Source of the DNA: an uncultured Acidimicrobiia bacterium
GTDB lineage: Bacteria > Actinomycetota > Acidimicrobiia > Spongiisociales > UBA5794
Length of the DNA stretch: 64,000 bases
Direction of reading: 5' to 3'
Assembly (NCBI GenBank): GCA_963823505.1
Contig: CAWGLY010000004.1
Coordinates: forward strand, 68,807-132,806
A model generated the notes under the pieces. That model had not been told where the DNA came from and made no database searches. It was given only the letters and a program-made list of their open reading frames with translations. This document shows positions 12,882 through 58,567 of the stretch, one piece after another. Each line of letters starts with the position of its first letter. Within the stretch, counting starts at the first letter, position 1. The position numbers and the translations under genes were made by a program.

Positions 12882-13009
12882 GTCGTCCCCTCTGAAAGAC
12901 GCTCCAGGTGCCGGGTCCTCGTCAGGATGCCCGGACGCCGTCAACCTACGGGAGCGAGCTTGGAAACGACTTGGAATGGGCGGCGCCTCGTACGACTGCG
13001 GTCGAGGCC

Positions 13010-27720: not shown

Positions 27721-30700
27721 GTGGAGATTCGCATCCTGGGCCCGATCGAGGCGACTGCCGGCGGCGAAGCATTGCCGCTCGGCGGGCTGCGGGAACGTGC
27801 CCTCTTGGCGGTCATGGCGCTGTCGCCCGGCCGGGTGCTCGGTTCGGACCGCCTGATCGACGAGCTGTGGGGCGAGGATCTCCCCGCCAATCCGGCCAAT
27901 GCCCTGCAGGCTCTGGTGTCGCGGCTGCGGCGGTCGGTTGGCGCCGAGGTCATCGTCACGCGCCCTCCGGGATACGTGCTCGACGTCCCGCCCGATGCGG
28001 TCGACGCCGTGCGTTTCCGGACCATGGTCGCGGCAGCACGACACGAGCCCGACCCGGCCGAGCGCGGGCGGCGATACCGGCAGGCGCTGGCGCTGTGGCG
28101 GGGACCGGCCCTGGCCGAGTTCACCGGCGAGGAGTCTCTCGTCCGTGAGCGCGCCCTCCTCGAGGAGCTGCGGTTGCAGGCCGTCGAAAGCCGAATCGCC
28201 GCGGATCTGGAGGTTGGAGACGCATCTGAGGTCGTTCCGGAGTTGGAACGGCTCATCGCCGATCACCCGTTGCGCGAGGGTCTGCGAGCCAGCCACATGC
28301 TGGCCTTGTACCGGCAGGGGAGACAGGCAGACGCGCTGCGCGCGTACACCGAGGCGAGCCGCCTCCTCGGCGAGGAGCTCGGCATCGAACCGGGCCCGGA
28401 GCTGCGGGCGATGGAGGAGGCGATCCTCATGCAAGAGCCCCGCCTGGGGGCGATGCCCGTCACGAGTCCACGGCGAGTGGCGGCACCGGCCCTTCCCGCC
28501 CGTATCGCCAGTTTTGTCGGACGGACCGAGGAGATGGCAGAGGTACGGGCTGCCTTCGGTGGGAGCCGTCTCGTCACGCTGACCGGAGCGGGCGGGGCCG
28601 GCAAGACCAGCCTCGCGATCGAGGCGGCTCGCGCGCTCGAGCAGGAGTATCCAGATGGGGTGTGGCTGATCGAGCTGGCACCGGTGATGGAGGCGACCAG
28701 CGTTCCCGACGCCTTGGTGGCGGCGCTCCACCTCGAGCTCGGTGGCGAGATCCGGGGGCGGCACGACCTCGATCCACTCGTCGCCGTGGTCGAGTTTCTC
28801 CGGCATCGCTCCGCGTTGCTCATCCTCGACAACTGTGAACACGTGGTGCACGCTGCGGCGGCGGCCGCTGAGCAGGTGCTGCTGGCGTGTCCGGCGGTCG
28901 ACGTGCTCGCCACGAGCCGGGATCGCCTTGGCATCCCTGGCGAGGTCTTGTGGCGGGTGCCGCCGCTCGGCGTAGGCGACGACCGGTCGGATGCGGTGAC
29001 GCTGTTCGTGGAACGGGCCCGGGCAGTCAATCCCTCGTTTGCACCCGATGCCGACGATGTGGCCGCCGTCGCCGATATCTGCCGGAGGGTCGACGGCATG
29101 CCGCTGGCGATCGAGCTGGCCGCCGCCCGCACCAGGACGCTGGCGGTCCACGAGATCGCCAGGCGGCTCCACGACGGCATCGGCGTCCTCAGCGGCGGCC
29201 CTCGCCACGGGTCGAAGCGGCAACAAACGCTGGCCGCAACGATCGACTGGAGCTATCGCCTGCTGCGTTCCGAGGATCGTGAGCTGTTCGCCCGGCTGGC
29301 GGCGTTCCGCAACAGCTTCTCCCTCGAGGCGGCGGAGAACGTGGCGCCTACGGGCTGGACGGCAGCGGCGGTTCTCGAGTCGATGGAGCGCCTCATCGAC
29401 GCCTCGATGGTGGCGCCTGTAGCGGCGGTGGCCTCGATGCGATACCGACTGTTGGACACGCTCGCCGCCTACGCAAGCGAACGGCTTGCCGAGACCGACG
29501 AGACCGACGAGGTCATCGCACGATTGCTCGACCACTACCTGGGCATGGTGGCGGATGCCGAAGACGGTCTGCGCGGTCCTGAGCAGCTCGAATGGATCGA
29601 ACGGATCGAAGCCGATCTCCCCACGGTGCGCAGCGTGCTCGATTGGGCTGCATCGCATGAGCCCACCGAGGGGTTGCGGCTGGCAGGGATGCTCGGTTGG
29701 TTCTGGTACCTGAGGGGCAGCGGCCAGGAAGCGCGGCAGCACTTCGAGACCTTGCTCGACGCAGTGGGCGAGGCAGTCGACGCTCGGACCCGGGCGCAGG
29801 CGCTCTTCTTCCGTGCGCTCCACGACCCGCACATCGAGGCAGCCCGGGAGGATTTTGAGGCTGCTCGCGACGCCTATCTCGAGGCCGGCGACACTGCTGG
29901 GGTGGCGCACTCGCTTGCGATGATGGCCGCATGGGGCTTCGATCGTGTGGAGACCGGGGCACTCATCGAAGAAGCTGCGGCGTTGTGCGCCGAGTCCGGC
30001 TACGCGTGGGGGGCGGCGCTGATCAGCTTCCTCTCGGCGGGCGTTGCCGCGGTCGCCAACGATGTCGACGCATCGGCCCGGTTCGCCGAGGATGCCGCAA
30101 CGCGGTTCGCTGCGCTCGGCGACCGCTGGGGACAGGGGTACAGCCTCTACTCGCTCGGCGTGGCCAGGCGTGCCATGGGTGACTATCCCGGAGCGTCTGC
30201 GGCGCTACTCGCCGCGCTGGATCATGCGCGCCCGATGCGGCTGCGCAGGGAGATGGCGCCGGTGCTGAGTGAGCTGGCCAGCATCGCCATGATGCAAGGC
30301 GAGTTCGCAGAGGCAGCGAGTCTCCTCGCCAGGGCACGGGAGTATGCGGATGAGGTTCCGTTCGCCGGGTCGCAGGGCATGGTGCGCAACGCCCAGGGTC
30401 GCCTTGCGCGCCTCCAGGGGGATCACGAGTCGGCGCGGCGGCTGCACCGTGAGGCGGTGGCGTTGTACGAGGAGAGCCGCAATCCGGGTGGGCTGGCCTA
30501 CTCGCTGTCGTGTCTGGGGTTCGCCGAGGAGTGGGGAGGTGACTTTGCGGCCGCGACGCGCCATCACCTCGATGCGCTGCACCACGCCGAGGCGTCCGGC
30601 GACGTGTTCGCCGTAGCGCTGGCGTTGGAGGGCGTGGGGGCAGCGGCGATCGTTGCGGGGGACGCCGGGCGCGGGGTGACGCTGGTGCATGCCGGGTTGG

Positions 30701-30882
30701 CGCTCCGCGAGGCCGCCGGTGTGCCGCTGCCGCCGGGCGAGTGGGTGGAGGTCGAGCGGGCGTTCGACGCCGCGCAGCACGTCCTCACTGCCGACGAGAT
30801 GGAGGCGGCTCGACAGTCAGCTCGCCGCCTGGACCTCGATCAGGCGACGGCGCTGGCTCGGCAGCAGCACCAAGCGCCGTGA
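27721..30882 (+). CDS. large SARP/AfsR-family regulator: winged helix plus BTAD, NB-ARC ATPase, TPR repeats
   Basis: Winged-helix region VEIRILGPIEATAGG, a BTAD domain, Walker A GAGGAGKTSLA, and a long TPR-like C-terminus. GTG start. Confidence 0.8.
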   Translation: MEIRILGPIEATAGGEALPLGGLRERALLAVMALSPGRVLGSDRLIDELWGEDLPANPANALQALVSRLRRSVGAEVIVTRPPGYVLDVPPDAVDAVRFRTMVAAARHEPDPAERGRRYRQALALWRGPALAEFTGEESLVRERALLEELRLQAVESRIAADLEVGDASEVVPELERLIADHPLREGLRASHMLALYRQGRQADALRAYTEASRLLGEELGIEPGPELRAMEEAILMQEPRLGAMPVTSPRRVAAPALPARIASFVGRTEEMAEVRAAFGGSRLVTLTGAGGAGKTSLAIEAARALEQEYPDGVWLIELAPVMEATSVPDALVAALHLELGGEIRGRHDLDPLVAVVEFLRHRSALLILDNCEHVVHAAAAAAEQVLLACPAVDVLATSRDRLGIPGEVLWRVPPLGVGDDRSDAVTLFVERARAVNPSFAPDADDVAAVADICRRVDGMPLAIELAAARTRTLAVHEIARRLHDGIGVLSGGPRHGSKRQQTLAATIDWSYRLLRSEDRELFARLAAFRNSFSLEAAENVAPTGWTAAAVLESMERLIDASMVAPVAAVASMRYRLLDTLAAYASERLAETDETDEVIARLLDHYLGMVADAEDGLRGPEQLEWIERIEADLPTVRSVLDWAASHEPTEGLRLAGMLGWFWYLRGSGQEARQHFETLLDAVGEAVDARTRAQALFFRALHDPHIEAAREDFEAARDAYLEAGDTAGVAHSLAMMAAWGFDRVETGALIEEAAALCAESGYAWGAALISFLSAGVAAVANDVDASARFAEDAATRFAALGDRWGQGYSLYSLGVARRAMGDYPGASAALLAALDHARPMRLRREMAPVLSELASIAMMQGEFAEAASLLARAREYADEVPFAGSQGMVRNAQGRLARLQGDHESARRLHREAVALYEESRNPGGLAYSLSCLGFAEEWGGDFAAATRHHLDALHHAEASGDVFAVALALEGVGAAAIVAGDAGRGVTLVHAGLALREAAGVPLPPGEWVEVERAFDAAQHVLTADEMEAARQSARRLDLDQATALARQQHQAP

Positions 30883-31483: not shown

Positions 31484-31577
31484 TCTCCGAGCATACACCA
31501 TGTCTACACCTCGTACCTTCAACTGGTGTATCGGCCGGCGTGCAGTACCCGCCGGTGCAGCGCGCGAGGCTTGCGGG

Positions 31578-32114
31578 TCAGTCCAGTAGTCCAGCAGGGT
31601 CGAGCGTGACCTCGACCGGACCCGCATCGAGTGTTGCCTCCGAGCCTGGACCGTGTCGGGCCTGTTCGACGAGCACCCCGTCGACCAGTCGGTACACGAT
31701 GACGATGGGTCCCTCCGGATCGATGATCCAGTAACGCTCCAGGCCGGCGGCGGCGTACTTGGCCGCCTTGCGGATGATGTCGGCGGCCGGGTCCGTGGAG
31801 AGGATCTCGACGGCGACGTGAGGCGTGCTTGTGAGGCGGCTTGTCTCGCCGGCGTCGTCGAACACCATCAGGTCCGGTACAAACTCGTCGCTCCCCGGCT
31901 TCCACGCCCAGCCTTCTACGACCATTGTCGGCGGCCGCAGCGCCGCTTTCAACGCAATCGCAAGGTTGAGCGAGATCGTCTGGTGGGGCAACGTCGGCGA
32001 AGGGCTCATCACGAGCGCCCCGTCGATGTATTCGCCGCGGACGCCGGGACCCAAGGCCGCGTACTCGTCCCAGGACATCGCTGTCCGGTCACCGGGCCGC
32101 GTCGTGGTTGCCAT
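31578..32114 (-). CDS. Uma2-family (DUF820) putative restriction-endonuclease-like protein, paralog 1
   Basis: PD-(D/E)xK-like motifs conserved with the four paralogs downstream ([32 protein letters not shown]). A conserved leader lies upstream. Confidence 0.7.
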   Translation of the reverse strand: MATTTRPGDRTAMSWDEYAALGPGVRGEYIDGALVMSPSPTLPHQTISLNLAIALKAALRPPTMVVEGWAWKPGSDEFVPDLMVFDDAGETSRLTSTPHVAVEILSTDPAADIIRKAAKYAAAGLERYWIIDPEGPIVIVYRLVDGVLVEQARHGPGSEATLDAGPVEVTLDPAGLLD

Positions 32115-32256
32115 GTCATGCACCGTACACCTCCGGTGTCCTCCAAACGTCCGATCCTGTTGTTCCCATCCTGTCCGCCCGGTGTGACAGATCCACAGGG
32201 GTCGGGCTGCAGGTTGCGGGGTCACAGTGCGGTCATTGCGGCGCCGAGGTCGCGGC

Positions 32257-34005
32257 TCACGTGGAAGTCAGCGACTCCAGGAACTCATCCTGCAGCTCCC
32301 GGAAGACCCGGTTTCCTTCTCGCAGCTCCTGGCTGAGGGTGCGGAAGGTCTCGTCGAGGCGTGCGGCGTCGCTATCTTCCTCGATGGGAGACTGCCCGGA
32401 TTCGATCAAATCGATGAGCTGCTCCACAACGGCTGTTTGGTCCTCTTGGATCGTCCGGAGCGTTCCGTCGAGTTGCCACATCTCCCGATAGGCGTCGGGT
32501 GCGTCAGGTTTCTCCATGGCCTCATACTGCGCCGCCGTGACTTCGAGCTCATTGCGTGCTTCCGCCGCTGCCGTTCGAGCAGCGGCGACATCGTCCTCGA
32601 ACGGCTCTCCGGCGAGCTGGGCGTTCACCGCATCGATGTACGCCGAGAATGCGTCGTTGATGGGGGCGCTCACCTGGTTGATCAGGTCGGTGAGGATATT
32701 CGTGTCGTCCCTGAAAGCATCGATGTTGATGTCGTCGAGGATCTGATCGAGCTCGTCGCCGGTGTCCGCGAAGAGGCTTTCACCATTGACACTCTGGGCG
32801 AGGGTTCGCAGTTCATCCTGCGTTTCGTCGTCCACTCGGAAGCCAATCACCTGGAAGTCGAGTTGCACTCCGATGCCCTCAGCTTCTTTCTGCAATGCGG
32901 CGAGATCCCCTCCACAGCCATCGGACGATGACGTGATGACTACGACCTTCGTTGCGACGTGTTCTCGATCGACGTTCGACGGGTAGATCGTCGGATCTGC
33001 AAATACGTCCACAGATGCCCGGACGGCAGAAACCAGATCGGCGTCACCGGACGGCTCGATCCCCGCCACGGCCTCGGAGACGCGTTCGCCGTTGCCCACG
33101 CCCAATGGGACGAGCCGGGCGGGATCGTCGGCGCACTCGTTGCCGAACGCAGAGAGCCCGAGCGCGGTGTGGGTCGCTCCGTCGGTGAACGAGGCAACTG
33201 CGTCGTTGAGCTCGACCAGTCGAGGTGTGCCGTTGTACTCCGCCGCCATCGCCGACGAGCTGTCTACGACGAGCTCGATGTTGCGCGTCGAGGTCTTCGT
33301 GCCGCCGAGCAACGCCGCACCCAGCAGCACTGCAAGCGCAACGGCCACGACCCCACCACCGGCCACCGCCCGGCGGCTGCGCTCTTGCAGCCATGAATCA
33401 CCCCGCACGTCGAGGCTGCTCGGGTCGGTGCCGGGCTTCGCAACCAGGCAAGGGGTGGCACCGTCGGGCAAGTCGAGCATGTCGACCTCGTTGGTGCCCA
33501 GTTTGAACGCGGATTCGACGTCTTTCCCGTTTGAGATGCCACGGTAGAACCCTGCCGCAAACCGCCGGGCACCATCGTCGGTGATGGCTCGTCGGGTGCC
33601 GATCACCGCGGCAACGTGCGCAGCGATGGCCTCCGCCTGCTGTTCGGTGTAGCACGCGTTGAGCACGACACACTGCAAGCGATCTCCAACGATGGCCAGG
33701 AGATCTGCCAGCGCTTCGCCATCCACCGGCTGGCTGTTTCCAGACTCGTCCTGCAACACGATGCCGGCGGACTGGCCATGTCCGGAGAAGTGGACGATGT
33801 GCGGCTTGAGCCGCAGCAGGACCTCGCCGAGGTCGTCTCTGCGCGTCGCCCAGTGCGAGACGAAGGAGATCTTCGAGCCGTGCTTGCCTTCGCGAAGCCG
33901 CTGCTCGATGAGCCGTGCTTCCTCGCCAAGCCGCAGCGGCTCCGTGTCAACCGGATTCGCCGCCAAATAGAGGATTCGCACGCTCATTGGGCAGCCAACC
34001 TGCAC
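32257..34005 (-). CDS. membrane protein: N-terminal caspase-like CHAT-type domain (His/Cys dyad), one TM helix, vWA (MIDAS) domain, coiled-coil tail
   Basis: HFSGHG and LNACYT are dyad-like motifs in a CHAT/EAD-type module. TM helix VVAVALAVLLGAALLGG. The vWA domain has DSSSAM (DxSxS). The C-terminus is coiled-coil rich. Confidence 0.6.
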   Translation of the reverse strand: MQVGCPMSVRILYLAANPVDTEPLRLGEEARLIEQRLREGKHGSKISFVSHWATRRDDLGEVLLRLKPHIVHFSGHGQSAGIVLQDESGNSQPVDGEALADLLAIVGDRLQCVVLNACYTEQQAEAIAAHVAAVIGTRRAITDDGARRFAAGFYRGISNGKDVESAFKLGTNEVDMLDLPDGATPCLVAKPGTDPSSLDVRGDSWLQERSRRAVAGGGVVAVALAVLLGAALLGGTKTSTRNIELVVDSSSAMAAEYNGTPRLVELNDAVASFTDGATHTALGLSAFGNECADDPARLVPLGVGNGERVSEAVAGIEPSGDADLVSAVRASVDVFADPTIYPSNVDREHVATKVVVITSSSDGCGGDLAALQKEAEGIGVQLDFQVIGFRVDDETQDELRTLAQSVNGESLFADTGDELDQILDDINIDAFRDDTNILTDLINQVSAPINDAFSAYIDAVNAQLAGEPFEDDVAAARTAAAEARNELEVTAAQYEAMEKPDAPDAYREMWQLDGTLRTIQEDQTAVVEQLIDLIESGQSPIEEDSDAARLDETFRTLSQELREGNRVFRELQDEFLESLTST

Positions 34006-34188
34006 CGCGTTTCACGCACGATCCGCACGCGACGCGAATCGCCGGCTGCCCACCTCACTCTGGGCGTGAACATGCTCCCTCCGCCTCCTGTTGTCTGCTC
34101 GGTCACTGCACGAGACGTACACCATCGGCGCCGAGATACATCGAATCTCGATGCACCCGGAGCGCAATCCCGCCGGTAGGCTCTCGAC

Positions 34189-35277
34189 GTGCCCCATCAC
34201 ATCAAGACCCTCGAGGTCCGCCGCGACGACTTGCGCATGACACGGGTCGTCAGCGACCCGCTGCCGGAGGTCGGCGCAGGCGAGGTGTTGCTGGCGGTGG
34301 ACCGGTTCGGCCTCACGACGAACAACATCACGTACGGTGTTGCAGGCGACATGATCGGCTACTGGGGCTTCTTTCCGTCGACCGACGGTTGGGGTCGCAT
34401 CCCCGTGTGGGGGTTCGCCGACGTTGTGGCGAGCGACATCGAGGACTTGCCCGAGGGCACCCGCGTCTTCGGCTACCTCCCGATGTCGACGCACCTCGTC
34501 GTGGCGCCATCCAGGGTCTCGCCCCACGGGTTCACCGACGGCGCCGCCCACCGGAGCCAACTACCCGCTCTCTACAACCGGTATCAGCGCACCGATGCCG
34601 ACCCGATGTACCTGCCCGAAACCGAGGACCTGCAGGCGATTCTGTTTCCGCTGTTCGCCACGTCGTTCGTGATCGACGACTTCCTGGCCGACAACGACGA
34701 CTTCGGTGCCGACCGTATCGTGCTGACGAGCGCATCCAGCAAGACCGCTGCCGGGACCGCGCTGTGCATCTCGCAGCGGGAGGGGCATCGGCCGCAGGTG
34801 GTGGGGCTGACGTCGGCGCGGCATGTCGACCTCGTGGCAGGACTGGGCTGGTACGACCAGGTCGTTGGGTACGACGACATTGCGACGCTTGATCCGTCGC
34901 TGCTGAGCGTGCTGGTGGACATCGCCGGCAACGCCGAGGTGCGGTTGGCGGTTCACCAGCTCAGCGGCGACCGGCTGACGGCGAGCCACACCGTCGGCAT
35001 GACGCATTGGGAGGCGCGGCCGACATCGGCACCGCTGCCGGGCCCGACGCCGGCGATGTTCTTCGCCCCCACCCAGGTCGACAAGCGGATCGCCGAGTGG
35101 GGCGTGGCCGGCTACCAGGAGAGGTTCGGTGCCGCGTGGTCGCGGGCTGTCGCCGTGGCTCCGCAGTGGCTCGACATCGTCGACGTCGCCGGCTTCGATG
35201 CGCTGCAAGCCACCTACCGTCGCCTCCTCGAGGGCGCAGCGAGCCCGGCCGAGGGATTCATCGTGCACGTCGGGTGA
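34189..35277 (+). CDS. hypothetical protein (DUF2855-like, possible MDR/Rossmann-like fold)
   Basis: This is a clean 362-aa frame. Its composition resembles actinobacterial DUF2855 proteins. The assignment is tentative. Confidence 0.4.
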   Translation: MPHHIKTLEVRRDDLRMTRVVSDPLPEVGAGEVLLAVDRFGLTTNNITYGVAGDMIGYWGFFPSTDGWGRIPVWGFADVVASDIEDLPEGTRVFGYLPMSTHLVVAPSRVSPHGFTDGAAHRSQLPALYNRYQRTDADPMYLPETEDLQAILFPLFATSFVIDDFLADNDDFGADRIVLTSASSKTAAGTALCISQREGHRPQVVGLTSARHVDLVAGLGWYDQVVGYDDIATLDPSLLSVLVDIAGNAEVRLAVHQLSGDRLTASHTVGMTHWEARPTSAPLPGPTPAMFFAPTQVDKRIAEWGVAGYQERFGAAWSRAVAVAPQWLDIVDVAGFDALQATYRRLLEGAASPAEGFIVHVG

Positions 35278-35313
35278 GCTTGACGGGAGTCACGACGTCC
35301 TCGGACGGCGCAC

Positions 35314-35850
35314 TCAGTCCAGCAACTGGGCGGGGTCGAGCGTGACCTGCACCGGCCCGGCATCGAGTGTTGCCTCCGAGCCTGGACCGTGTCGCGCTTG
35401 TTCAACGAGCACGTCCTCCACGAGGTGGTAGACGATGACCTGGGGGCCATCGGGATCGATGATCCAGTAACGCTCCAGGCCTGCGGCGGCGTACTTGGCG
35501 GCTTTGCGGATGATGTCGGCGGCCAGATCGGACGAGAGGATCTCGACGGCGAGATGAGGCGTCTCCGTGAAGTGGGCCGTTTCGCCGGCATGGTCGAAGA
35601 CCAGGAGGTCCGGGACGAACTCGTCGCTTCCTGGTTTCCACGCCCAGCCCTCTACGACCATGGCGGGAGCGCGCAGCACCGTGTCGAGAGCAACCGCCAG
35701 CCTGAACGAGATTCTCTGGTGGGGGAGCGTTGGCGAGGGACGCATCACCAGGGCTCCGTCGATGTACTCGCCGCGGACCTCCGGGCCCAGCGCCATGTAG
35801 TCATCCCACGGCATGGGGACCCGGTCACCCGGTCGCATCGTCGTTGCCAT
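35314..35850 (-). CDS. Uma2-family (DUF820) protein, paralog 2
   Basis: About 75% identical to paralog 1 and shares the identical leader (gccatgtcatgcaccgtacacctcc). Confidence 0.7.
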   Translation of the reverse strand: MATTMRPGDRVPMPWDDYMALGPEVRGEYIDGALVMRPSPTLPHQRISFRLAVALDTVLRAPAMVVEGWAWKPGSDEFVPDLLVFDHAGETAHFTETPHLAVEILSSDLAADIIRKAAKYAAAGLERYWIIDPDGPQVIVYHLVEDVLVEQARHGPGSEATLDAGPVQVTLDPAQLLD

Positions 35851-36031
35851 GTCATGCACCGTACACCTCCGATGTCCTCCGCAGGTCGGCATCGTCCCCC
35901 GCATCGTGGTCGACGGGTGTGACGTGATCCGGCCACTGGAGCGTACTTCCAGCACGCCGCGGATCAGATGGGTAGGATCGAAATCAGGCGGCGGCGGTTC
36001 CGTCGTCTGGGCGCGACAGGGGAGGACACAG

Positions 36032-37654
36032 ATGCGTATGCGAATCGTTCTCGTTTCGGCGATGCTTCTCCTGGCGGCAGCGACACCGGTGCAGGCGAAG
36101 CCGCTACCGGAGCCGTTCGATGTCAGCCAGGCACAAGAGGTCGGCAGGGGCGCAGAGACCAACTCGCTCAACGGGATCTACGTGTCGCCCTACGACGGCA
36201 ACGTGTATGTCGCCAGCGTCGGCGGGGACGAGATCACCGTGCATGACCCCGAGACCGGAGATCTGCTCGACCGCATCGGTCCCGAGCGCGGGGTGCACGG
36301 TCCCGACGACGTCTTCGTCGCCGACGACGGAACGATCTACTGGACCGAGATCCTCCTGGGTTACGTCGGGATGCTCCGGCCGGGCGAGGAGCCCGTCTAT
36401 CGGTTCGTGGGACCGGGCGTGAACCCGATCACGATGTCCGACGACGGCCGTCTCTTCGTGGGACGCCTCTTCTTCGGCACGGGTCTGTACGAACTCGATG
36501 CCGACCTGGCAAACGATCCCGTGCTGCTGAACGAGGATCTCCAGGTCAACTCGTTCGACTTCGGGCCCGACGGCCACCTGTATGCCCCGTCGTTCTTCAC
36601 GGGCGAGGTCTTGAGGATCGACGTCGACTCTGCGGTCCCGGTGACGGCCGATGTCGTGGCGAGCGTCGGCGGGGTTTCGTCTGCCGTGAAGTTCAACTCG
36701 CTGGGCGAGGCCTACGCCGTGAACATCGGCGAGGGTCTCGTCTTGAAGCTCGACCTCTCGGGGGCGAACAACCACGAGGTCGTGCTGGACATCGAAGGCA
36801 CCATCGACAACATCGCATTCGCCACCGACGATCGCCTCTTCGTTGCGGCCGGCGTCGACAACCAGATCATCCGCGTCGACACCCGGGGTCGCGCCAAGGC
36901 CCTCACCCCGGCCGGTCTCGGACTTCCGGGCGGCGTCGCGGTGTCGCCGGACGGCACGGTGTGGGTCACCGAGCTCTTTGCGATGCGCGGCTTTGCGGGC
37001 AACAAGCGGTGGACGTCCTCGTTCTACGACCGGTTCGACCCGCCGGGTACGGGCTACGCCGGTTCGACGACCGTGTCGGCCGACGGCGACAACCTGATCA
37101 TCACGAGCGGCTTCGCCAACACCGTGCAGGTGATGGACCCTGCGACGGGCGCGATCTCGTTCGATGAGCGGAGGCTGGCCGTGGTGACCAATGCGGTCCG
37201 CCATGGCGAGGCGATCGCAGCGGCGCAGCTGGGCCTCGGCAACGTCGCCAACGCCGCCGATCCGGCTGAGGTGTTCATCGACGGTCTCGTCGTACCGTTG
37301 GGGTTGGCCTCCGATGGCGAGACGCTCTATGTGAGCGACTGGGCGACAGGCATCGTGTGGGCCGTGGGCGACACCGGACCGAGCGTGCTGGCGTCGGGGC
37401 TGCTGCTGCCGGAGGGTATCGCCGTGGACGGCGATCGCCTCCTCGTCGTCGAACCTCTCCTCGGGCAGGTGACGGCGATCGATCTGGCCACCGGAGCGAC
37501 GTTCCCCGTCATCGTCGGTCTCGACTACTCGGACCGGGTTCCGGAAGGGTTCTTCCCGTTCGGCAACATGGCCGGGGTAGCCGTCGGTGATCGGTCGATC
37601 TACGTATCGGACGACGGCGTCAACAAGGTCTACGAGTTCCCCAGGAACCCCTGA
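36032..37654 (+). CDS. secreted beta-propeller repeat protein (NHL/SMP-30/YncE-like)
   Basis: Signal peptide MRMRIVLVSAMLLLAAATPVQA behind a GGAGGA RBS. Repeated GxxxxSPDG/VSDDG blades occur. The antisense ORF 36104..38002 is rejected. Confidence 0.6.
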   Translation: MRMRIVLVSAMLLLAAATPVQAKPLPEPFDVSQAQEVGRGAETNSLNGIYVSPYDGNVYVASVGGDEITVHDPETGDLLDRIGPERGVHGPDDVFVADDGTIYWTEILLGYVGMLRPGEEPVYRFVGPGVNPITMSDDGRLFVGRLFFGTGLYELDADLANDPVLLNEDLQVNSFDFGPDGHLYAPSFFTGEVLRIDVDSAVPVTADVVASVGGVSSAVKFNSLGEAYAVNIGEGLVLKLDLSGANNHEVVLDIEGTIDNIAFATDDRLFVAAGVDNQIIRVDTRGRAKALTPAGLGLPGGVAVSPDGTVWVTELFAMRGFAGNKRWTSSFYDRFDPPGTGYAGSTTVSADGDNLIITSGFANTVQVMDPATGAISFDERRLAVVTNAVRHGEAIAAAQLGLGNVANAADPAEVFIDGLVVPLGLASDGETLYVSDWATGIVWAVGDTGPSVLASGLLLPEGIAVDGDRLLVVEPLLGQVTAIDLATGATFPVIVGLDYSDRVPEGFFPFGNMAGVAVGDRSIYVSDDGVNKVYEFPRNP

Positions 37655-37721
37655 CCGAGGCTCGAACAGGCAGCTGCGGGTCCGGGAGGGCCCGCCGCTT
37701 GCCATGTCACGGCACGCGCGG

Positions 37722-38120
37722 CTACGCCCGCAGCTCCACGAAGCCGGCTGCGCCGAAATCCCCGTCGAAGGCGAGCGCCGACGTGATGCGCTCACGACGC
37801 ATCGTTGCGAAGCTCGTTGCGTCGACGAACGAGTATTCCCGCTCATCGTGCCGTCGGAGCCATGTAGCCGCATCGCTCTCGTCTTCGGCGCTCGAGTGGA
37901 TTGCATGAATGCGTGGCGAGGCGTCGACGGCGTCGAGTAGGGCCACGGCAGCACCGTGGCCGGCCCGCCGTCTGAGGTAGGTCCAGGATTCGCCGACGAC
38001 ATGGTTCGTCGTGAGCCACCCGGCTGCGGCGTGCCGATTGGCGAGTTCGACGGCCTCGGCGTGGTGGGGATCCTTGGCGAGCAGCAAGCCCACGAAGAAC
38101 GAGGTGTCGACGAAGATCAT
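37722..38120 (-). CDS. vapC: PIN-domain toxin VapC (second pair)
   Basis: MIFVDTSFFVGLL is the PIN N-terminus and conserved acidic residues are present. Overlaps the upstream antitoxin. Confidence 0.75.
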   Translation of the reverse strand: MIFVDTSFFVGLLLAKDPHHAEAVELANRHAAAGWLTTNHVVGESWTYLRRRAGHGAAVALLDAVDASPRIHAIHSSAEDESDAATWLRRHDEREYSFVDATSFATMRRERITSALAFDGDFGAAGFVELRA

Positions 38121-38332
38121 CGGCCGTATACGACCTCGTCGATGCTCGCCGGCTCGGCATCCACCGACCCGATCAAGCGAAAGAGGGGATCGCTGCTCAA
38201 TGGCGGCAGCGGCTCCAGCGCAGTACGCAGGATCCGACGGATGACCGCCGCCTTGGATATGCCCTCGTCACGGGCGACCCGTCCGACGGACTCGTCGAGG
38301 TCCTCGTCGATCATGATCTGGAGTCGTTTCAT
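38117..38332 (-). CDS. vapB: CopG/RHH-family antitoxin VapB (second pair)
   Basis: A 71-aa protein (MKRLQIMIDEDLDESVGRVARDEGISKAAVIRRILR) with a 4-nt overlap with vapC. Confidence 0.7.
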   Translation of the reverse strand: MKRLQIMIDEDLDESVGRVARDEGISKAAVIRRILRTALEPLPPLSSDPLFRLIGSVDAEPASIDEVVYGR

Positions 38333-38484
38333 GGGTAGAAGCTTACATCACTCTCCTTACGCTGACGTAGGATTCCTCCGCTACCGGCGGCCCGATGAGG
38401 CAGGTGAGTTCAGCATGCAGTGGGAGAGTGACAGAAACCTGCTGATGTCTCGCCGGAACCCTTCGTCCACCGCTCGCTGGGGTG

Positions 38485-40153
38485 TCACCCCGCGACGGCC
38501 ACGGCTGCCGGCTCGTCCTGCGCCGGTGCGGTGGTCTGCGCTTCGTGGCCGCCTGCGACGCCGGCCATGGACACGCCGACCAGCTCCCCAGCCAGCACCA
38601 GGAGCAAACCCACGACGACGAAGGTCTCGGGCAGCTCCGAGCCGGGGTTGCCCGGCCGGGGTTGGGCCAGCGACAAGAAGATGTCGACCGCCGGCACCAC
38701 CATCACGGCGGTCACTGCGGACACGACTACCAGCCGCACCCATCGCGCCACCTCACCCGCCGCCGGCCACGCCACGAGCGCGATGCCGGCCACGATCGCC
38801 GGCCAGGTGAAGAGGTAGGCCGCCCCCGGCATCCCCACCGCCGCCACTACAGCGAACGCAGCCCACACCAGCACGACACCTCCGGGTGCGGGCCTACTTC
38901 GGCGGCGTGCCAGCCAGAGCCGCATCGCCAGGCCCGCAGCTCCTATCCCCGCCAGGTACAGGTATGCCTCGCCTGCGCCCATTTCGGGTCGGGCTGCTGC
39001 GATGCCCATCCACACCAGCCCCGCTACGAGTGCGGCCCCCACCGCACCGAGCGTCAACCATGTCGCGCTGGCCAGTACGGCCCGGAGCCGGAGGCCTCGG
39101 CGCCGCACGTCGACGGCCACCGTAGCCGCCGCCATCGCAGCGGCCACCAAAGCCAGCGGCAGCGTCCACATGCTCCGGTAGCGCACCAGCACCCCAGGCC
39201 ACACGGTGAAGAACGTGGCGTCGGCGGTCGACGGTGTCTCGGTCAGGTCCATGTTCCCCAGCTCGTGCGCCATGCCCACTGCATAGTCACCGTGATGCTG
39301 CACGCTGGCGAGCGACACACTGTCGAGCGCGTCCCGCGGCGTGTGGTAGATCGAGGAGCCCCGCAGGTAGGCGACGTTGAGGCCTCGCACACCGGCTGCG
39401 TTGAACGGGTCGAGGTCGGTGCCGATCTCGCCCATCAGCTCGACGGTGGCGGTGAGGAACGAGAAGGCAACCGGCCGCGAGGTCGCGGAGGCCAGCCGGT
39501 CGATCGTCCACGCTTGCGCTACGCCGGTTTCCGCCGCGATCGATGGGCCCGAACCTCCCAGCGCCTCGAAGTTCATCACGAATGCGACGTCGTCCATCCA
39601 CGGGTGTTGCGTGACGAACGCAGTCGAGCCGTACCGCGGCGCCGGCTCTTCCGCATCGGTGAACAGCACCACCACGTCGTTGCCCAACGGCTCACCCGCA
39701 ACCAGCGCCCGGGCGGTCTCCAGCAGCACCGCCACGCCTGATGAGTTGTCGTTCGCCCCGGGCGTCGGTGGATCGGTGTCGTAGTGCGCCATCAACACCA
39801 CCGCCCCCGTCGTCGACGTTCCGCGGATGCGAGCCATCACGTTGACCACCTCGACGGTCGTGGCAGACGGCGAGAAGTAGTCCGGAGCCTCGACCGCCTG
39901 CAATTCGGGATCGAGGCCGAGCGACTCGAGCTGTGCCACCAGGTAGCCGCGCACTGCTTGGTTCTCCTCAGATCCCATTGGATGTGGGTCTGCGGGCGAC
40001 GGCGGCCACATGGGTCATGGCCCGGTCGGCGGAGAACTCGTCGGGTGCAGGGTCGGCCGGTATCGACGGCGTGGCGAGGGTCCGTGCGCCGAGCAGCAGC
40101 GCCGCTCCCACGGCTGCGGCGCACCACGCATATCGCCCAGCACGGCTGATCAC
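38485..40153 (-). pseudogene. M28-family zinc aminopeptidase with C-terminal multi-TM region; N-terminal signal peptide lies in a different frame (frameshift near 39980-40010)
   Basis: M28 motifs AHYDTD, NDNSSG and FTDAEE lie in frame 38485..40011. The signal peptide plus peptidase start (AAAVGAALLLGARTLA...AMTHVAAVARRP) lies in ORF 39968..40153. Confidence 0.6.
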
Positions 40154-40257
40154 CCCGCAACCGTCCCACGCCTGGCGGCGGCGCGGCTAGGGCCCAACGA
40201 TGCCTACCCGAGTGAGGACCCGGCGCCGGCGGCGTTGTGGCGGGCGTTGGGATGGTG

Positions 40258-40800
40258 TCAGCCGAGGAGATCCGCAGGGTCGAAGGTGACGCTTGCTGGT
40301 CCCATGTCGAGCGTGATCGCCTCGCCGGGTCCATGCCGTGCCCGCTCGACGAGCACGCCGTCGACAAGGCGGTACACGATCACCAGGGGCCCGTCGGGAT
40401 CGATGATCCAGTAGCGCTCGAGCTCAGCGGCGGCGTACTTGTGTGCCTTGCGAATGATGTCGGCGGCCGGGTCGGACGACAGGATCTCGACCGCCAGATG
40501 TGGGGTTGCCGTGAGGCGCCGGTCGTCGTAGTGCTCGTCGACGGCATACATCATCACGTCCGGGATGAACTCGTCGCGGCCCGGTTTCCATCCCCACGCC
40601 TCCCGCACTTGGACGCCGTCGGGGAGGACCCGCTCGATGAGGTTGGCCAGGCGGCGTGAGATGTCCTGATGCCGCCCCGTGGGTGAAGGGCTCATCACGA
40701 GTGCCCCGTCGACGTATTCGCCGCGGACGTCGGGGTCGAGCGCCTCGTAGTCGTCCCAGGACATCGGGATTCGGTCCCCGGGTTGCATCGTCGTGGCCAT
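40258..40800 (-). CDS. Uma2-family (DUF820) protein, paralog 3
   Basis: Same family motifs and leader as paralogs 1 and 2. The 332-aa ORF in the track is an upstream run-on. Confidence 0.7.
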
Positions 40801-40999
40801 GTCATGCACCGTACACCTCCGGTGTCCTCCGGTGGTCAATGCGGCCATGGTGCCGGGTGGGTGTGACAGGAATCCGGTGGGGGATGGGCGTTTGGACGTA
40901 TCAGCACCACAGGAGCCGCCTCCCGTCGCACGGCAGAGTCCACCAGTTGGGTGAGACGCGTGCCATGCTTGGAGTACGAAGGCGAAAGGGAGGGATTCG

Positions 41000-41488
41000 A
41001 TGAAGGGGAATGTGCGATTCGTGGCGGTTGTGGCGCTGCTCGTGCTTGCAGCGGCGTGCGGGGGCGATGACTCAGCCGATGCAGGAGACGACGCAGGCGG
41101 CGGCAGCGATGCGCAGACCGCAACGACGTTCCCGTCGACCGTCGGCGACATTCCGGGCGTCAGCGGCGAATGCGAGGCGCTCGCCAACCTGTCGCTGGCC
41201 ATCTCCGGCGTTCTCACCGGGACCTTCGACGGCCTGCCTGATGACGTGGTGGGCAACCTGCCGGGCGATGCGCAGGCTGATGGCGAGATCGTCGCCGACG
41301 CAGTTCAGGAGTTCAGCGATCGCCTCGACGAACTCGGCATCGATCTGTCCCAGGGTCTGGGGAACCTCAGCGCAGAGCAGCTCCAGGCGTTCAGCGACAT
41401 CTCGGGCGAGGTGTTCAACGACGACGTCGACGCCGCAGTCAACCGGATCGGCATCACCATGGCCGACGACTGCGCCCCGGGCGGCTGA
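41000..41488 (+). CDS. acidic lipoprotein
   Basis: Signal plus lipobox ([12 protein letters not shown]). Asp/Gly-rich mature protein. Confidence 0.55.
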
Positions 41489-41587
41489 GAGAAGGCGCTG
41501 CGGGAGGGCAGGCCCACCGGGGAGCGGGTGCGCCCGCAACGCAGCGCGGAGTCGCATAGGGTGCGATCACCGAAGCGAAGGGATGAG

Positions 41588-42001
41588 ATGGAGATCGACA
41601 CCGCCCTCGAGTTTGCCGCCGCCACGAAGAAGGGCGTACTGGCGACTCACAAGCGAGACGGCCGCCCGCAGCTGTCGAATGTCGTGTTCGCCGTCGCCGA
41701 CGGCGAGGTTCGGATCTCTGTCACGGACGGTCGGGCGAAGACCGCCAACCTGCGCCGCGACCCGCGGGCCTCGCTCCACGTCACCTCCGCGGACTTCTGG
41801 TCCTACGTCGTCATCGACGCCGACGTGGAGTTGACCGACGTGATGACGGACCCCGGCGACGAGGCAGCGGAGCTGCTCCGCAGCACGTACCGTGCCGTCT
41901 CGGGCGAGCACCCGGATTGGGACGAGTTCGACCAGGCCATGATCGACGACCGCCGCCTCGTCGTCCGGCTCCGGCCCAACCACGCCTACGGCATGGGGTG
42001 A
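41588..42001 (+). CDS. PPOX-class F420-dependent oxidoreductase (pyridoxamine-5'-phosphate-oxidase fold)
   Basis: GVLATHKRDGRPQLSNVVFAV and LRRDPRASLHV are typical of the Rv1155/F420 PPOX family. Start at MEIDTALEF. Confidence 0.65.
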   Translation: MEIDTALEFAAATKKGVLATHKRDGRPQLSNVVFAVADGEVRISVTDGRAKTANLRRDPRASLHVTSADFWSYVVIDADVELTDVMTDPGDEAAELLRSTYRAVSGEHPDWDEFDQAMIDDRRLVVRLRPNHAYGMG

Positions 42002-42101
42002 GCCGAAGAGGTTCGGGACTCCACGGGACTCGGAAAGGTCATGCGGCCGAGCGTACCGGCTGTGCCATCGACGGACGATGGAACCGGGAAAGGAGGCAAC
42101 C

Positions 42102-42602
42102 ATGAAGCGGTTGCTCACTGCACTCGCTGCCTTGCTGCTCCTCATCGTGACGGCGGCGCCCGCCTCGGCCGAGGTGGAGCGGATTCCAATCGAGGTCGAG
42201 ACCGAGGTCGTCGGCATCGTTGACTTCGGCAGCTACAGCGAGACCGGTCAGGTGATCCATGTCGTGGACATCGTGTGGCTGTTCAACGGCACTGGCCACG
42301 ATCTCTTCGAAGGCGAGCTCTACACGACGCTCAGCTTCACGGCCAACCGGGTGACTGGCAAGGGTGCCGGCCACGGAACCTTCGTCGCTCTGTCTTCGAA
42401 CTACCCCGATTCCGGATGGGAGGGAACGCTCCTGACGAAGTACGAGAACTTCGACTTCAACACAGGGTTCGGGGACCTGACGACCGATAGCGTATCCCAC
42501 GGCTTCGGTGCGTTCGAAGGGATGCAGATGCGCCTCGAGAGCGGTGCCGAAGGTGGACTGGTCGGCGAGATTCTGATTCCGCCGTCGGCTCCCGGCGTCT
42601 GA
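42102..42602 (+). CDS. secreted hypothetical protein
   Basis: Signal peptide MKRLLTALAALLLLIVTAAPASA. No recognised motif. Confidence 0.5.
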   Translation: MKRLLTALAALLLLIVTAAPASAEVERIPIEVETEVVGIVDFGSYSETGQVIHVVDIVWLFNGTGHDLFEGELYTTLSFTANRVTGKGAGHGTFVALSSNYPDSGWEGTLLTKYENFDFNTGFGDLTTDSVSHGFGAFEGMQMRLESGAEGGLVGEILIPPSAPGV

Positions 42603-42636
42603 GTCGCCGGTCACCCGGCGCCCGCGGTCGTGGTGC

Positions 42637-43183
42637 CTAGTCCAGCAATCGAGCCGGATCGAAAGTCACCTCGCAAGGCCCGACGTCGAGGGTCACCACC
42701 GCTCCCGGTCCGTGCCGCCCTTGCTCGACGAACACGCCGTCGATGAGATGGTGGACGATGACCTCGGGACCTTCCGGGTCGATGATCCAGTAGCGCTCGA
42801 GGCCCGTCGCCGCGTACTTGGCGGCCTTGCGGACGATGTCGGCGGCAGGGTCCGTGGACAGCACCTCGACGGCGAGGTTCGGTGTCGCTCCGAGGCGGCG
42901 GTCGTCGTAGTGCTCGTCGACTCCGAAGACCACGACGTCGGGGATGAACTCGTCGCTGCCGGGCTTCCATCCCCAACCTTGTCTCACCCGAACACCGTCC
43001 GGCAAAGCCTCGCTCTATCACGTTGGTCAGGCGATGCGAGATGTCCTGGTGACGGCCGCTCGGGGCGGGCGACATCACCAGCTCCCCGTCGATGTATTCG
43101 CCGCGCACGTCGGGCCCCAGCGCCTCGTACTCGTCCCACGACATCGGGATCCGGTCTCCCGGTCGCATCGTCGTCGTTGCCAT
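42637..43183 (-). pseudogene. Uma2-family (DUF820) paralog 4, disrupted by a single-nucleotide insertion
   Basis: The N-terminal half is in frame 42611..43240 and the C-terminal half in frame 42637..43005. The shift falls at NVIER|LPDGVRV within a T-run. Confidence 0.6.
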
Positions 43184-43236
43184 GTCATGCACCGTACACC
43201 TCCGATGTCCTCCAGGGTTGTGTGGTGACGGTCCGA

Positions 43237-43600
43237 TCATCTCAGCTGCGGGTGACAGATTCGGAGGCCACTGTCGCGTCTCGGCTGGACCAAGGTCATC
43301 GGCGGAGAAGGCGGACGAGCCGGCCGATGGCCCACGGCATGTATTGCGTAGTCCCGCCGCCGGTACAGCGCGGACACCGGTGCCAGCACGATGTGCTGCA
43401 TACCGGCATCCGCATAGTCACGGAGTTGGGTCGCGACCGCCTGGGGCGTGCCGAAGAGGAAGGAAGAGCGAACGATCTTTCTGGGCACGCAGGAGAACGG
43501 CGGCCTCCAGCGCCGCCCGGTCGATCGTCTCGGGCTCGGCGTCGATGTAGCCGCGGAACTCCGGATCGAGCAACGCATCCAGGCCGATCCGGAGCGTCAT
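43237..43600 (-). pseudogene. remnant of a luciferase-like (LLM) F420-dependent oxidoreductase, C-terminal fragment
   Basis: [25 protein letters not shown] and LDALLDPEFRGYIDAEPE are typical of the LLM C-terminus. No N-terminal domain is present. Confidence 0.4.
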
Positions 43601-43705
43601 GCACGCTCTCCGAATCGAGCTATTGCGACTGTGAGCTCGGCGAGCAAGGCGCCGTAGGGCCGAAGGGCATCAGCGGTTTGTGGTGGTCGTGCCCGTACAG
43701 GCGCG

Positions 43706-44251
43706 TCAGCCGACGAGCCGGTCTGGGACCAGGGTCACGATGGTCTCGCCGATGTCGATGGTGACGAGCTCGGCGCCCGTGTGCCGGCCGGCTTCGGTGT
43801 AGGCGGCGGTGCCGGGGACGAGGTTGTACTCGATGATCTCCGGGCCCTCGGGGTCGACCACCCAGTAGCGGGGAAGTCCGGCGGCGGCGTACTTGTGGAG
43901 CTTGCGCAGCAGGTCTCGGCCCCGGTCCGACGACAGGATCTCCACCACGAGGTGCGGGGTGCCGGTGAAGCGGTGCAGCACATCGGCACGGCTTCCGCTG
44001 TAGACGATGAGGTCGGGAATGAACTCGTCGTCTCCGGGCTTCCACGCAAACTCGTGGCTCACGAGCACGCCAGGCGGCACCGCCGCCTCGAGGATCGCCC
44101 GTAGGCGGTGCTCGATGTCTTGGTGCCGGTTGGTGGGCGACGGGCTCACGACGAAGGCGCCGTCGATGTATTCGCCCCTCGGATACACCGGGAGGGCTGC
44201 GTATTCGTCCCACGACATGGGCAACCGATCGCCGGCCTGCAATGTAGACAT
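43706..44251 (-). CDS. Uma2-family (DUF820) protein, paralog 5 (divergent, different leader)
   Basis: Family motifs [15 protein letters not shown] and [15 protein letters not shown] are present. The start was chosen by alignment with the paralogs ([17 protein letters not shown]); in-frame starts exist at 44281 and 44305. Confidence 0.6.
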
Positions 44252-44303
44252 AGCGTCATTCACGATACCCCTCGCCGTCATGTCCTCCTCTCGGTTTCCT
44301 GCC

Positions 44304-45233
44304 ATGCAACGTATGCGGAGGGTGCGACAGGAACGGAGGCGGTCAGACGAGGGCATCGCAACGGGCGGCGGGTACCGGGCGATAGGGCGCACCCTGCCTA
44401 CGCTCACGATCGTGAACGACACCGAACCGAGCCTGAAGCTACGCATTCGCCACATCATCTTCGATCACGACACGCCGGCGGCGAAGACGTTCGACGTGGT
44501 GCTGATGGTGCTGATCGTCTTCAGTGTGCTGCTCGTGATGCTGGAGACGGTCGAGGAGATCGAGGCGCGCTACGGCACGCTGCTGCTGGTGCTGGAGTGG
44601 ATCGTGACGATCCTCTTCTCGATCGAGTACATCCTCCGGCTGGGACGGTCGAGAACCGGCGGCAGTACGCCACGAGCTTCTTCGGCGATCATCGATCTGC
44701 TGTCGATCCTGCCGGTGTATCTGAGTCTGATCCTGCCGGGTGCGCAGTCGCTGCTCGTGATCCGTTCGTTGCGCCTGCTGCGGGTGTTCCGAGTGTTCAA
44801 GATGGCGCCGTGGCTGAGCGAGGCGAACTACCTGACCCGGGCAATCCGGGCCAGCTCCCGCAAGATCGTGGTGTTTCTCATCGTCGTCGTCCTGATCAAC
44901 GTCATCGTGGGGTCAACGATGTACGTCATCGAAGGCCCGGAGCACGGCTACGACTCGATGTTCCGCGGCGTCTACTGGTCGATCGTGACGATGAGCACTG
45001 TCGGCTTCGGCGACATCGCGCCGTCGACACCGCTCGGCCAGGTCTTGGCGGCGATCCTGATGATCACCGGCTATGCCGTCATCGCCGTCCCCACCGGGAT
45101 CGTGGCGGCTGAAGTGGCGTCGACCGGCAACGAGCAGCGTGAGCTGTCATGCCCCGGCTGCGGTTCGGCGGCCCACGGTGCGACGGCGCGGTTCTGTGAT
45201 GCGTGCGGCACGGCGCTGCCGGGGCGGGGGTGA
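44304..45233 (+). CDS. voltage-gated K+ channel (6TM, S4 sensor, TVGFGD filter) with C-terminal zinc ribbon
   Basis: S4 segment [13 protein letters not shown]. Pore with TVGFGD. A C-terminal CPGCG...CDACG motif is present. The start is uncertain (M92, M100 or M103 of the ORF). Confidence 0.7.
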
Positions 45234-50944: not shown

Positions 50945-51039
50945 CCGTTCAACTCGCGGCCGCCGTGTCCGTTGACAGCGCCGACGTACTCGCAGATCCG
51001 ATGGACGGCTCGACGCTCTCCGGTCGCTCCGTGACGGCA

Positions 51040-52230: not shown

Positions 52231-52245
52231 CGAGGAGGCACTGGC

Positions 52246-55692: not shown

Positions 55693-55735
55693 GTGGAGCA
55701 CCTTTGATTTCGAAGACCGTTCGAAGGAGGATGCA

Positions 55736-56629: not shown

Positions 56630-56644
56630 TTGGTAGGAGTTCAA

Positions 56645-58560: not shown

Positions 58561-58567
58561 GGCGCCC

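Follow-up and report, generated by a model that had tools for sequence, protein, structure and literature searches.

A promoter of PafBC-type geometry and a conserved translation-initiation block precede clustered Uma2 genes in an uncultured Acidimicrobiia bacterium

Introduction

Why should paralogous genes be far more alike around their start codons than across the rest of their coding sequences? The question is raised by a 64-kb stretch of DNA (hereafter, the window) from an uncultured Acidimicrobiia bacterium (contig CAWGLY010000004.1 of assembly GCA_963823505.1, positions 68,807–132,806), in which genes of the Uma2 family form an array at 31.5–44.3 kb. A preliminary description, made from the sequence alone, had noted that four of the copies share a near-identical leader, with a GTGTGACAG box farther upstream, and had read this pattern as common regulation or recent gene conversion.

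Uma2, also known as DUF820 or TT1808 (PF05685, COG4636), is a large family in which lineage-specific paralog expansions are typical, Thermus having 15 copies and cyanobacteria a great number; it is also paralog-rich in actinobacteria. Structures have been solved, with no function or regulation known. Here, we describe two conserved elements of the window copies, a bipartite promoter and a translation-initiation block, together with their occurrence in other genomes and metagenomes. As the promoter architecture equals that of the PafBC-dependent ("RecA-NDp", sigma-adaptation) promoters of Actinomycetota, we consider it most likely, with a probability of roughly 0.6, that these genes belong to a PafBC-type and probably DNA-damage-inducible regulon of candidate nucleases, with both PafBC binding and induction predicted from sequence.

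Each Uma2 copy has its own bipartite promoter

A tblastn search with two of the copies identifies exactly five Uma2 genes, and no sixth, in the 64-kb window. All are on the minus strand: c1 (32123–31578, with a GTG start at 32123 and an in-frame ATG at 32114), c2 and c3 (35859–35314 and 40809–40258, GTG to stop), c4 (43192–42637), and the divergent c5 (44263–43706), which is 53% identical to c1. Reverse-complemented, the GTGTGACAG box becomes a TGTCAC element, which reads cTGTCAC on the coding strand, with the variants CGTCAC in c2 and TGTCGC in c5. The element starts 59–66 nt before GTG, in agreement with the 60–70 nt first reported, and in all five copies a spacer of exactly 10 nt separates it from a hexamer whose second base is A and whose sixth is T. 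Every copy has the GTC triplet, and the shared geometry is GTC + 12 nt + NANNNT. The box of the preliminary description is a real motif; what changes is its definition, now a TGTCAC element set 10 nt from a −10 hexamer in PafBC-type geometry.

The degenerate N10 pattern is not enriched across the window (19 matches versus 12 expected), and because it is too degenerate, a position weight matrix (PWM) was built. Scanning the window with the PWM yields no more than six sites that reach 14 bits, corresponding to the five Uma2 promoters and one site before an operon encoding ribbon-helix-helix (RHH) and PIN proteins. On the minus strand, the c1 promoter TGTCAC-N10-CAGGAT occupies 32168–32189 (23.0 bits), c2 CGTCAC-N10-CACGAT 35903–35924 (22.3 bits), c3 TGTCAC-N10-CACCAT 40847–40868 (32.6 bits), c4 TGTCAC-N10-GATGAT 43236–43257 (24.8 bits), and c5 TGTCGC-N10-TACGTT 44308–44329 (26.4 bits). 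A pattern with an N11 spacer matched none of the five copies and was discarded.

A consensus scan of 31–45 kb reveals no sigma-70 −35/−10 pair upstream of any copy, and no LexA box (TCGAAC-N4-GTTCGA, up to two mismatches) is present in any Uma2 upstream region of the window. Across the whole window, the same LexA pattern and threshold give 15 matches versus 4.5 expected, most of them apparently inside open reading frames (ORFs); this excess may reflect a composition or codon effect.

The promoter recurs in relatives from other genomes

A scan for the leader core (described below) covered 185,579 species genomes, a collection from which the window's own genome is absent. True matches occur only upstream of Uma2 genes, in metagenome-assembled genomes of Acidimicrobiia/Actinomycetota and in two further bins, one labelled Gemmatimonadota and one unclassified, and the upstream box is present in all of them. 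Metagenome loci were chosen by protein patterns only (RGEY[IV]DG.. and LERYWI[VI]D), giving 80 loci with 50–80% protein identity.

Combining window, genomes, and metagenomes, the pattern GTC..N10..nAnnnT lies 25–88 nt before the start in 71 of 85 unique upstream regions, against a chance estimate of ~1.5. The spacer measures 10 nt in all 71 motif-bearing homologues; in relative L099 it is 9 nt. Of the 68 metagenomic loci having at least 130 nt upstream, 55 score 18 bits or more, a count that is descriptive only, the PWM having been trained on sequences it then counted. In total, 466 kb of fetched loci contain 92 sites at this threshold, versus 0.1 in shuffles. Positions left free in the search pattern are also conserved, including TT at −5/−4, T at −1, ACCC after GTCAC, and G after the hexamer. 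The resulting family consensus is nTTCyTGTCACACCC-N6-(C/T/G)A(C/T)nnTG, with nTTCy as the bases 5′ of the box, and more distant relatives display textbook −10 hexamers (TACGTT, TACGGT).

Four Uma2 relatives (L057, L068, L081, and L094) have no TGTCAC element and keep the same initiation core. They share an upstream (C)GATATGTTCGAC / ACATACGTTCG sequence, composed of half a LexA-like box and a −10.

The motif also precedes DNA-damage and toxin-antitoxin genes

The sixth window site, TGTCAC-N10-CATGCT (38412–38433, minus; 20.1 bits), is positioned ~80 nt upstream of the RHH/PIN operon (38332–37722; Pfam RHH_1 and PIN). In the flanks of the fetched loci, non-Uma2 sites precede genes for DinB/IMS, a DUF222+HNH protein, RecC, six VapB/RHH antitoxins (L006, L028, L034, L060, L062, and L078), and a few unknown ORFs. 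The DinB (IMS) gene is divergent from the Uma2 gene of L076. The DUF222-HNH gene of L073 (minus, site 4915) is leaderless, and a perfect LexA box, TCGAACATATGTTCGA, stands immediately after its TGTCAC-N10-TAACAT promoter. The RecC site was observed in L047/L048, and two of four further recC orthologues fetched (56–57% identical) carry the motif directly upstream (18.3 bits in L108 and 18.1 bits in L110), placing motif-bearing RecC in three lineages. L110 also contains the classical mycobacterial/Streptomyces form, TGTCAGTG-N8-TAGGTT, at 6734 on the plus strand before a 67-aa ORF.

Judged from these sequence contexts, the motif marks a specific predicted regulon containing recognized DNA-damage genes (dinB, recC, and the LexA-boxed HNH gene). 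Because the motif precedes such genes as well, it ties the window Uma2 genes to a PafBC-type response. Its recurrence before antitoxin operons suggests that toxin-antitoxin (TA) modules are co-regulated with the Uma2 nuclease-like genes.

The vapB gene of the window (31483–31289) has no TGTCAC promoter in the 94-nt gap that follows c1, unlike L006, and may for this reason be co-transcribed with c1. A direct repeat, GGTGTAGACATGGTGTA, at ~31486–31525 (minus) lies just before the VapB start. Conserved before the orthologous vapB genes of L006 and L060, it probably serves as the operator of the antitoxin itself.

A conserved block surrounds the start codon

On the coding strand, c1–c4 share a common 35-nt block, GGAGGACAYCGGAGGTGTACGGTGCATGACATGGC. 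The c1 block, GGAGGACACCGGAGGTGTACGGTGCATGACATGGC (32110–32144, minus), comprises two Shine-Dalgarno (SD)-like boxes, a GTG start, and an out-of-frame ATG at +5. The c3 block (40796–40830, minus) is identical to that of c1, and the c2 and c4 blocks (35846–35880 and 43179–43213, both minus) are 100% identical to each other. A recognizable variant, GGAGGACATGACGGCGAGGGGTATCGTGAATGACGCTATG (44249–44288, minus), precedes c5, with a spacer between the two GGAGG-like boxes that is 4 nt longer. Pairwise identity among c1–c4 reaches 94–100% in the block, compared with 72–80% in the coding sequence (CDS) and 50–57% in the variable part of the untranslated region (UTR); the 200 nt upstream and 150 nt downstream are ~52% identical, which equals the alignment background. 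The near-identity of four leaders, far above that of the coding regions, and the divergence of the fifth therefore stand as first described. The leader core pattern has five matches in the window versus 0.14–0.5 expected, and none of 100 shuffles reached five.

Only the last 14 nt of the block (GTG CAT GAC ATG GC) are coding, and the 21 nt before GTG are non-coding. The c1 start codon was assigned from SD spacing and in-frame conservation in 81 homologues. A GGAGG or AGGnG sequence sits 6 nt before GTG, and [GT]TG.[AC]TG is found at the expected start in 81 of 85 sequences. Throughout the homologues, GTG is in frame with a downstream ATG(GC) although the spacer varies between 6, 9, 12, and 15 nt, which identifies GTG as the start codon. 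The distance from the first GGAGG box to GTG is 20, 21, 25, or 39 nt in different homologues, so that no reading frame is kept upstream of GTG.

The invariant leader core is AGGnGTAnnGTGnATG, accompanied by one or two GGAGG boxes, and is kept in 61 of 68 distant relatives, with the promoter kept in 55 of the 68. The conservation profile consists of A−9 G−8 G−7, T−4 A−3 (78 of 81), GTG, and A+5 T+6 G+7. The second codon is NAT in every case (His, Asn, Asp, or Tyr), and its His is encoded by CAT in 29 of 29 cases, versus 30 CAT and 38 CAC in a later His column; from codon 5 on, synonymous positions vary freely. Nucleotide-level constraint is thus confined to about −9 to +12, plus the optional first GGAGGAC box. 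We take the block to be a strong, unstructured region of translation initiation in which the invariant TA (−4/−3) and the out-of-frame +5 ATG remain a puzzle.

For the +5 ATG, our preferred guess is a decoy start that damps nuclease synthesis. The overlapping ORF that opens at this ATG (32–38 codons in nearly all homologues) was rejected as a conserved CDS: its second positions, which are Uma2 third-codon positions, vary freely from codon 5, and its peptide is not conserved. An internal −10 for a leaderless mRNA, read as TAnnGT from −4 to +2, was also rejected, TA being kept where the ATG distance is 10–13 nt. The 7-nt distance to the in-frame ATG fits this idea in c1–c4 and close relatives only, leaving an embedded −10 for a leaderless isoform as a minor idea that fits part of the Uma2 family.

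Four independent loci carry a two-hairpin element, placed within the Uma2 leader or shortly downstream of the start: L020 (~4330–4460, minus), L031 (1820–1900), L034 (1070–1150), and L054 (~760–830). It is composed of GCGGACTTGC..GCAAGTCC or GTGCCGC..GCGGC, plus GCAGTTTCC..GGAAACTGC, and the search pattern for it has no other match in the ~530 kb of sequence covered. In L066, a different hairpin lies between the two SD boxes. The conserved Uma2 leader may be a preferred insertion site.

Uma2 products retain a nuclease-like core

PF05685 matches c1 (92 bits), c2, c3, and c5 at 91–99 bits (cut-off 27), covering approximately positions 1–169 of 172. The length of c4, 556 nt, is not divisible by three: compared with c3, an extra nucleotide inserted near 43010 shifts the frame, such that the first 60 residues in one frame score 27.4 bits and the remainder of the gene lies in a second frame. 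Whether c4 is a pseudogene or a sequencing frameshift, the array of five minus-strand Uma2 genes with one frameshifted member is borne out by tblastn, by Pfam, and by this insertion. The window has a GC content of 61–69%.

In an 11-sequence alignment, the PD-(D/E)XK core positions DEFxPD, E..LS (VEILS), and K..KY are invariant. With acidic and lysine positions intact, the Uma2 products are predicted to be PD-(D/E)XK nuclease-like proteins that would cut DNA. They match the solved structures 9y1l_A (E = 1.7e-9), 6okh, and 3ot2 (both ~1e-5), all of which are uncharacterized, and an exact-protein look-up of c1 returned no entry on record.

Genomic surroundings of the array

The genes interleaved between the copies encode VapB/VapC, a CHAT+VWA protein, DUF2855, a beta-propeller, RHH/PIN, an M28 peptidase, a lipoprotein, PNPOx, a secreted protein, a luciferase-like fragment, and an ion channel. 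The unrelated cargo of the preliminary description is thereby recovered and extended by DUF2855, PNPOx, the luciferase-like fragment, and two VapBC/RHH-PIN pairs. The luciferase-like monooxygenase is a C-terminal remnant (43237–43578, minus; Pfam 23.7 bits, below cut-off) located in the interval from the c4 promoter to c5; this remnant and the frameshift in c4 point to local gene decay.

Upstream of the array are STAND/BTAD regulators and ordinary metabolic genes. The former include a group of large signalling NTPases: a short BTAD regulator (12144–12944), an nSTAND1 C terminus with WD40 repeats (13010–15673), a BTAD-kinase-nSTAND1 protein (15570–18557), and a BTAD-NB-ARC-TPR protein (27721–30882). 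Downstream, at a distance of 5 kb, a restriction/defence-type cluster spans 49094–61505 and comprises HsdM (49094–50944), an HsdR N-terminal fragment (52652–53908), a Schlafen/AlbA_2 protein (54454–55692), a RAMA-domain protein matching PADLOC PDC-S11/S14 (55736–56629), and a McrC-like DUF2357+PDDEXK_7 protein (59913–61505). The window contains no tRNA gene, and no integrase or transposase was found among its scanned ORFs. Clustering of Uma2 genes, a known trait of the family, recurs elsewhere, with at least four copies in 57 kb of Ga0214472_10000015 and two each in L006, L019, and L031.

The Uma2 proteins match four models of the PADLOC candidate PDC-S03 at 75–81 bits. PDC families, which are untested candidates, are defined by their location inside BREX, DISARM, and type I restriction-modification systems; the window Uma2 copies differ in that they are not embedded in a defence operon. 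The earlier suggestion of an addiction- or defence-associated family gains indirect support from the PDC-S03 match and from TA operons with the same promoter, whereas dinB, recC, and the LexA-boxed HNH gene point to a DNA-damage regulon.

Discussion

In mycobacteria, the in vivo PafBC consensus is tGTCgg(N10)tA(N3)T, with a 5′ part at −23 to −28 and no −35; PafB reads the GTC triplet, which is nearly invariant among actinobacteria (PMC8635444). PafBC is reported in almost every actinobacterial species. The Uma2 promoters resemble the PafBC promoters of Mycobacterium and Streptomyces in the GTC element at −28 to −23, the 10-nt spacer, the nANNNT −10, and the lack of a −35, as well as in the presence of the motif before DNA-repair genes and with a LexA box. 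They differ in the GTC flanks (TGTCACACCC here versus tGTCgg / TTGTCRgtg), in a −10 that often begins with C or G, and in gene content: the sampled motif genes are mostly Uma2 paralogs and TA operons, neither of which our literature search found for PafBC.

Under a PafBC-type regulon, each Uma2 gene would form its own transcription unit, driven by a promoter that dispenses with a −35 and pairs a TGTCAC element (~−28 to −23, invariant GTC) with a (C/T/G)ANNNT −10 placed exactly 10 nt downstream. PafBC, or an orthologous −26-binding activator, would bind the element, and the regulon would be switched on when single-stranded DNA (ssDNA) accumulates through DNA damage or possibly through phage or plasmid DNA. 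The transcript would begin with a leader of ~30–40 nt, predicted to be unstructured, that ends in the conserved initiation region: the optional GGAGGAC box, the SD sequence AGG(N)G, TA at −4/−3, GTG 6 nt after the SD, and the near-invariant out-of-frame ATG at +5 to +7. This ATG may modulate, and perhaps damp, productive initiation. A bolder version, which we hold to be doubtful, would make Uma2 and VapBC/RHH-PIN the most numerous output of an ssDNA-sensing PafBC pathway in an Acidimicrobiia-like clade, with synthesis further gated by a dedicated initiation module of invariant sequence, in which a strong out-of-frame AUG 4 nt after GUG would compete for the same SD and keep a potentially toxic nuclease low until needed.

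Several observations weigh against assigning the array to PafBC. No WYL-domain gene is present among the scanned window ORFs, the pafBC genes of the source genome and its relatives not being searchable. The element continues after GTC as ACACCC instead of the mycobacterial "gg" or "Rgtg", so that a different −26-binding factor is possible, and in c1–c4 and close relatives the −10 begins with C or G, not T. Two recC orthologues (L107 and L109) have GTG in place of GTC or no motif. A Streptomyces plasmid Uma2 protein, 34% identical, is encoded without the promoter motif and without the initiation core, limiting the motif link to an Uma2 subfamily and not the whole family. To these are added the circular training behind the 55/68 count and the unexplained role of the TA and +5 ATG in the initiation core.

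The alternative that survives best, possible though unlikely in our estimate, retains the same promoter and has its −26 element read by another WYL-family or unrelated activator that responds to phage or other stress, with Uma2, TA, and HNH genes forming a defence or abortive-infection regulon. The PDC-S03 matches and the nearby defence-type island are consistent with it, as are the bases after GTC; moreover, other WYL activators use a −26 element, SiwR reading GGA. However, GTC with a 10-nt spacing is the signature of PafBC and not of SiwR, dinB, recC, and a LexA-boxed gene have the motif as well, and PDC-S03 is an experimentally untested candidate. The SiwR promoter of M. smegmatis (msmeg_1357-56) likewise couples a −26-bound activator to a −10 and responds to genotoxic stress; its GGA lies in a 19-bp imperfect palindrome and serves only adjacent dinB-like genes, whereas the GTC motif described here is non-palindromic and dispersed over many genes.

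A structured cis-acting RNA in the 5′ block, such as a riboswitch, a thermometer, or an SD-sequestering hairpin, or else a target of antisense or small RNA, appears very unlikely. A 5-bp stem (ACAYC/GGUGU) is possible in c1–c4, with a C/T difference compatible with a G-U pair, and in a subgroup (L002, L009, L019, L022, L041, and L105) the 49 nt from the −10 to GTG fold over both SD boxes and GTG (z −1.4 to −2.1). Across 36 diverse leaders, however, RNAalifold predicts 0 pairs; the mean folding z of 71 leaders is +0.13, with window copies at +0.1 to +0.9, and an Rfam scan of 30–46 kb (E ≤ 1) returns only a chance miRNA match. A small-RNA target could escape these tools. Within the subgroup itself, pairing of both SD boxes and GTG is possible with a conserved upstream stretch, GCGCGG..CACCATTCC, and the hairpin may act as a translational lock; such a lock is absent from the window copies.

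Recent duplication or gene conversion, with leader identity as a functionless by-product, is a remote explanation. It would fit the identical blocks of c2 and c4 and of c1 and c3, and c1 and c2 are mutually closest (82%). Yet high identity ends abruptly at the variable UTR and the CDS, and the nearest relatives of other copies lie in other genomes: c3 is closest to L066 (76%) and c5 to the second Uma2 of L020 (73%). The retention of core and promoter in distant relatives argues against it in the same way. Because old paralogs and homologues elsewhere share the elements, selection explains the leader conservation, although the final few per cent of identity inside the source genome may come from conversion. 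Of the two readings offered in the preliminary description, common regulation is supported by the recurrence of promoter and core in other genomes, and gene conversion is not needed.

Equally improbable is a mobile cassette of promoter, leader, and gene in which the 5′ block serves as a recombination or insertion site. Such a cassette would suit the clustering of Uma2 paralogs between unrelated genes in the window and on other contigs, and hairpin elements have been inserted repeatedly into the leader. Homology, however, reaches the stop codon and goes no further, and neither a conserved 3′ site nor flanking repeats are present; this lack of 3′ homology argues against a two-ended mobile element; the window also lacks a tRNA gene, and its scanned ORFs include no integrase or transposase. 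That the block is the translated N terminus of a longer protein begun upstream, a caveat raised in the preliminary description, is scarcely credible: the ORFs do run on upstream of GTG in all copies, as expected from the high GC (65–69%) of the DNA, but the 4-nt indel between the boxes of c5 and c1–c4, the varying distance from box 1 to GTG, the GGAGG 6 nt before GTG, and the background identity of the sequence upstream of the block all speak against it.

The DUF222-HNH gene with the Uma2 motif on a related contig invites a further comparison. The REP13E12/DUF222-HNH genes of M. tuberculosis are multi-copy and damage-induced. They resemble the Uma2 array as a multi-copy nuclease-like family with a damage-type promoter per copy, and differ in having an HNH fold in place of PD-(D/E)XK and in showing no shared leader here. 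Against the background of the Uma2 family at large, the window genes are clear members, to which the Acidimicrobiia-type subfamily adds a dedicated promoter and initiation region.

Our literature search retrieved no paper in which Uma2/DUF820 is connected with PafBC or with DNA damage, no paper pairing PafBC with Acidimicrobiia, and nothing on the regulation of the Uma2 family; a supplement of the M. smegmatis PafBC paper contains no Uma2/DUF820 entry. Neither the kind of promoter nor the protein family is new. What appears to have no earlier description in the searched literature is the pairing of the two, together with the consensus specific to this lineage, the TA operons predicted to be co-regulated, and the invariant core.

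A subfamily-wide PafBC-type promoter makes DNA-damage induction and PafBC control of Uma2 directly testable. If this assignment holds, the range of the PafBC-type motif, Mycobacterium and Streptomyces, would grow to include an Acidimicrobiia-like lineage, where its consensus, TGTCACACCC, is distinct. The AGGnGTAnnGTGnATG core, with its out-of-frame ATG conserved at the nucleotide level, is a small, well-defined puzzle, and if the ATG is a decoy, it would represent a new kind of translational damper. Should the genes prove to be PafBC output guarded by a decoy AUG, Uma2/DUF820 would gain a first physiological role, that of a damage- or invader-triggered DNA-cutting effector.

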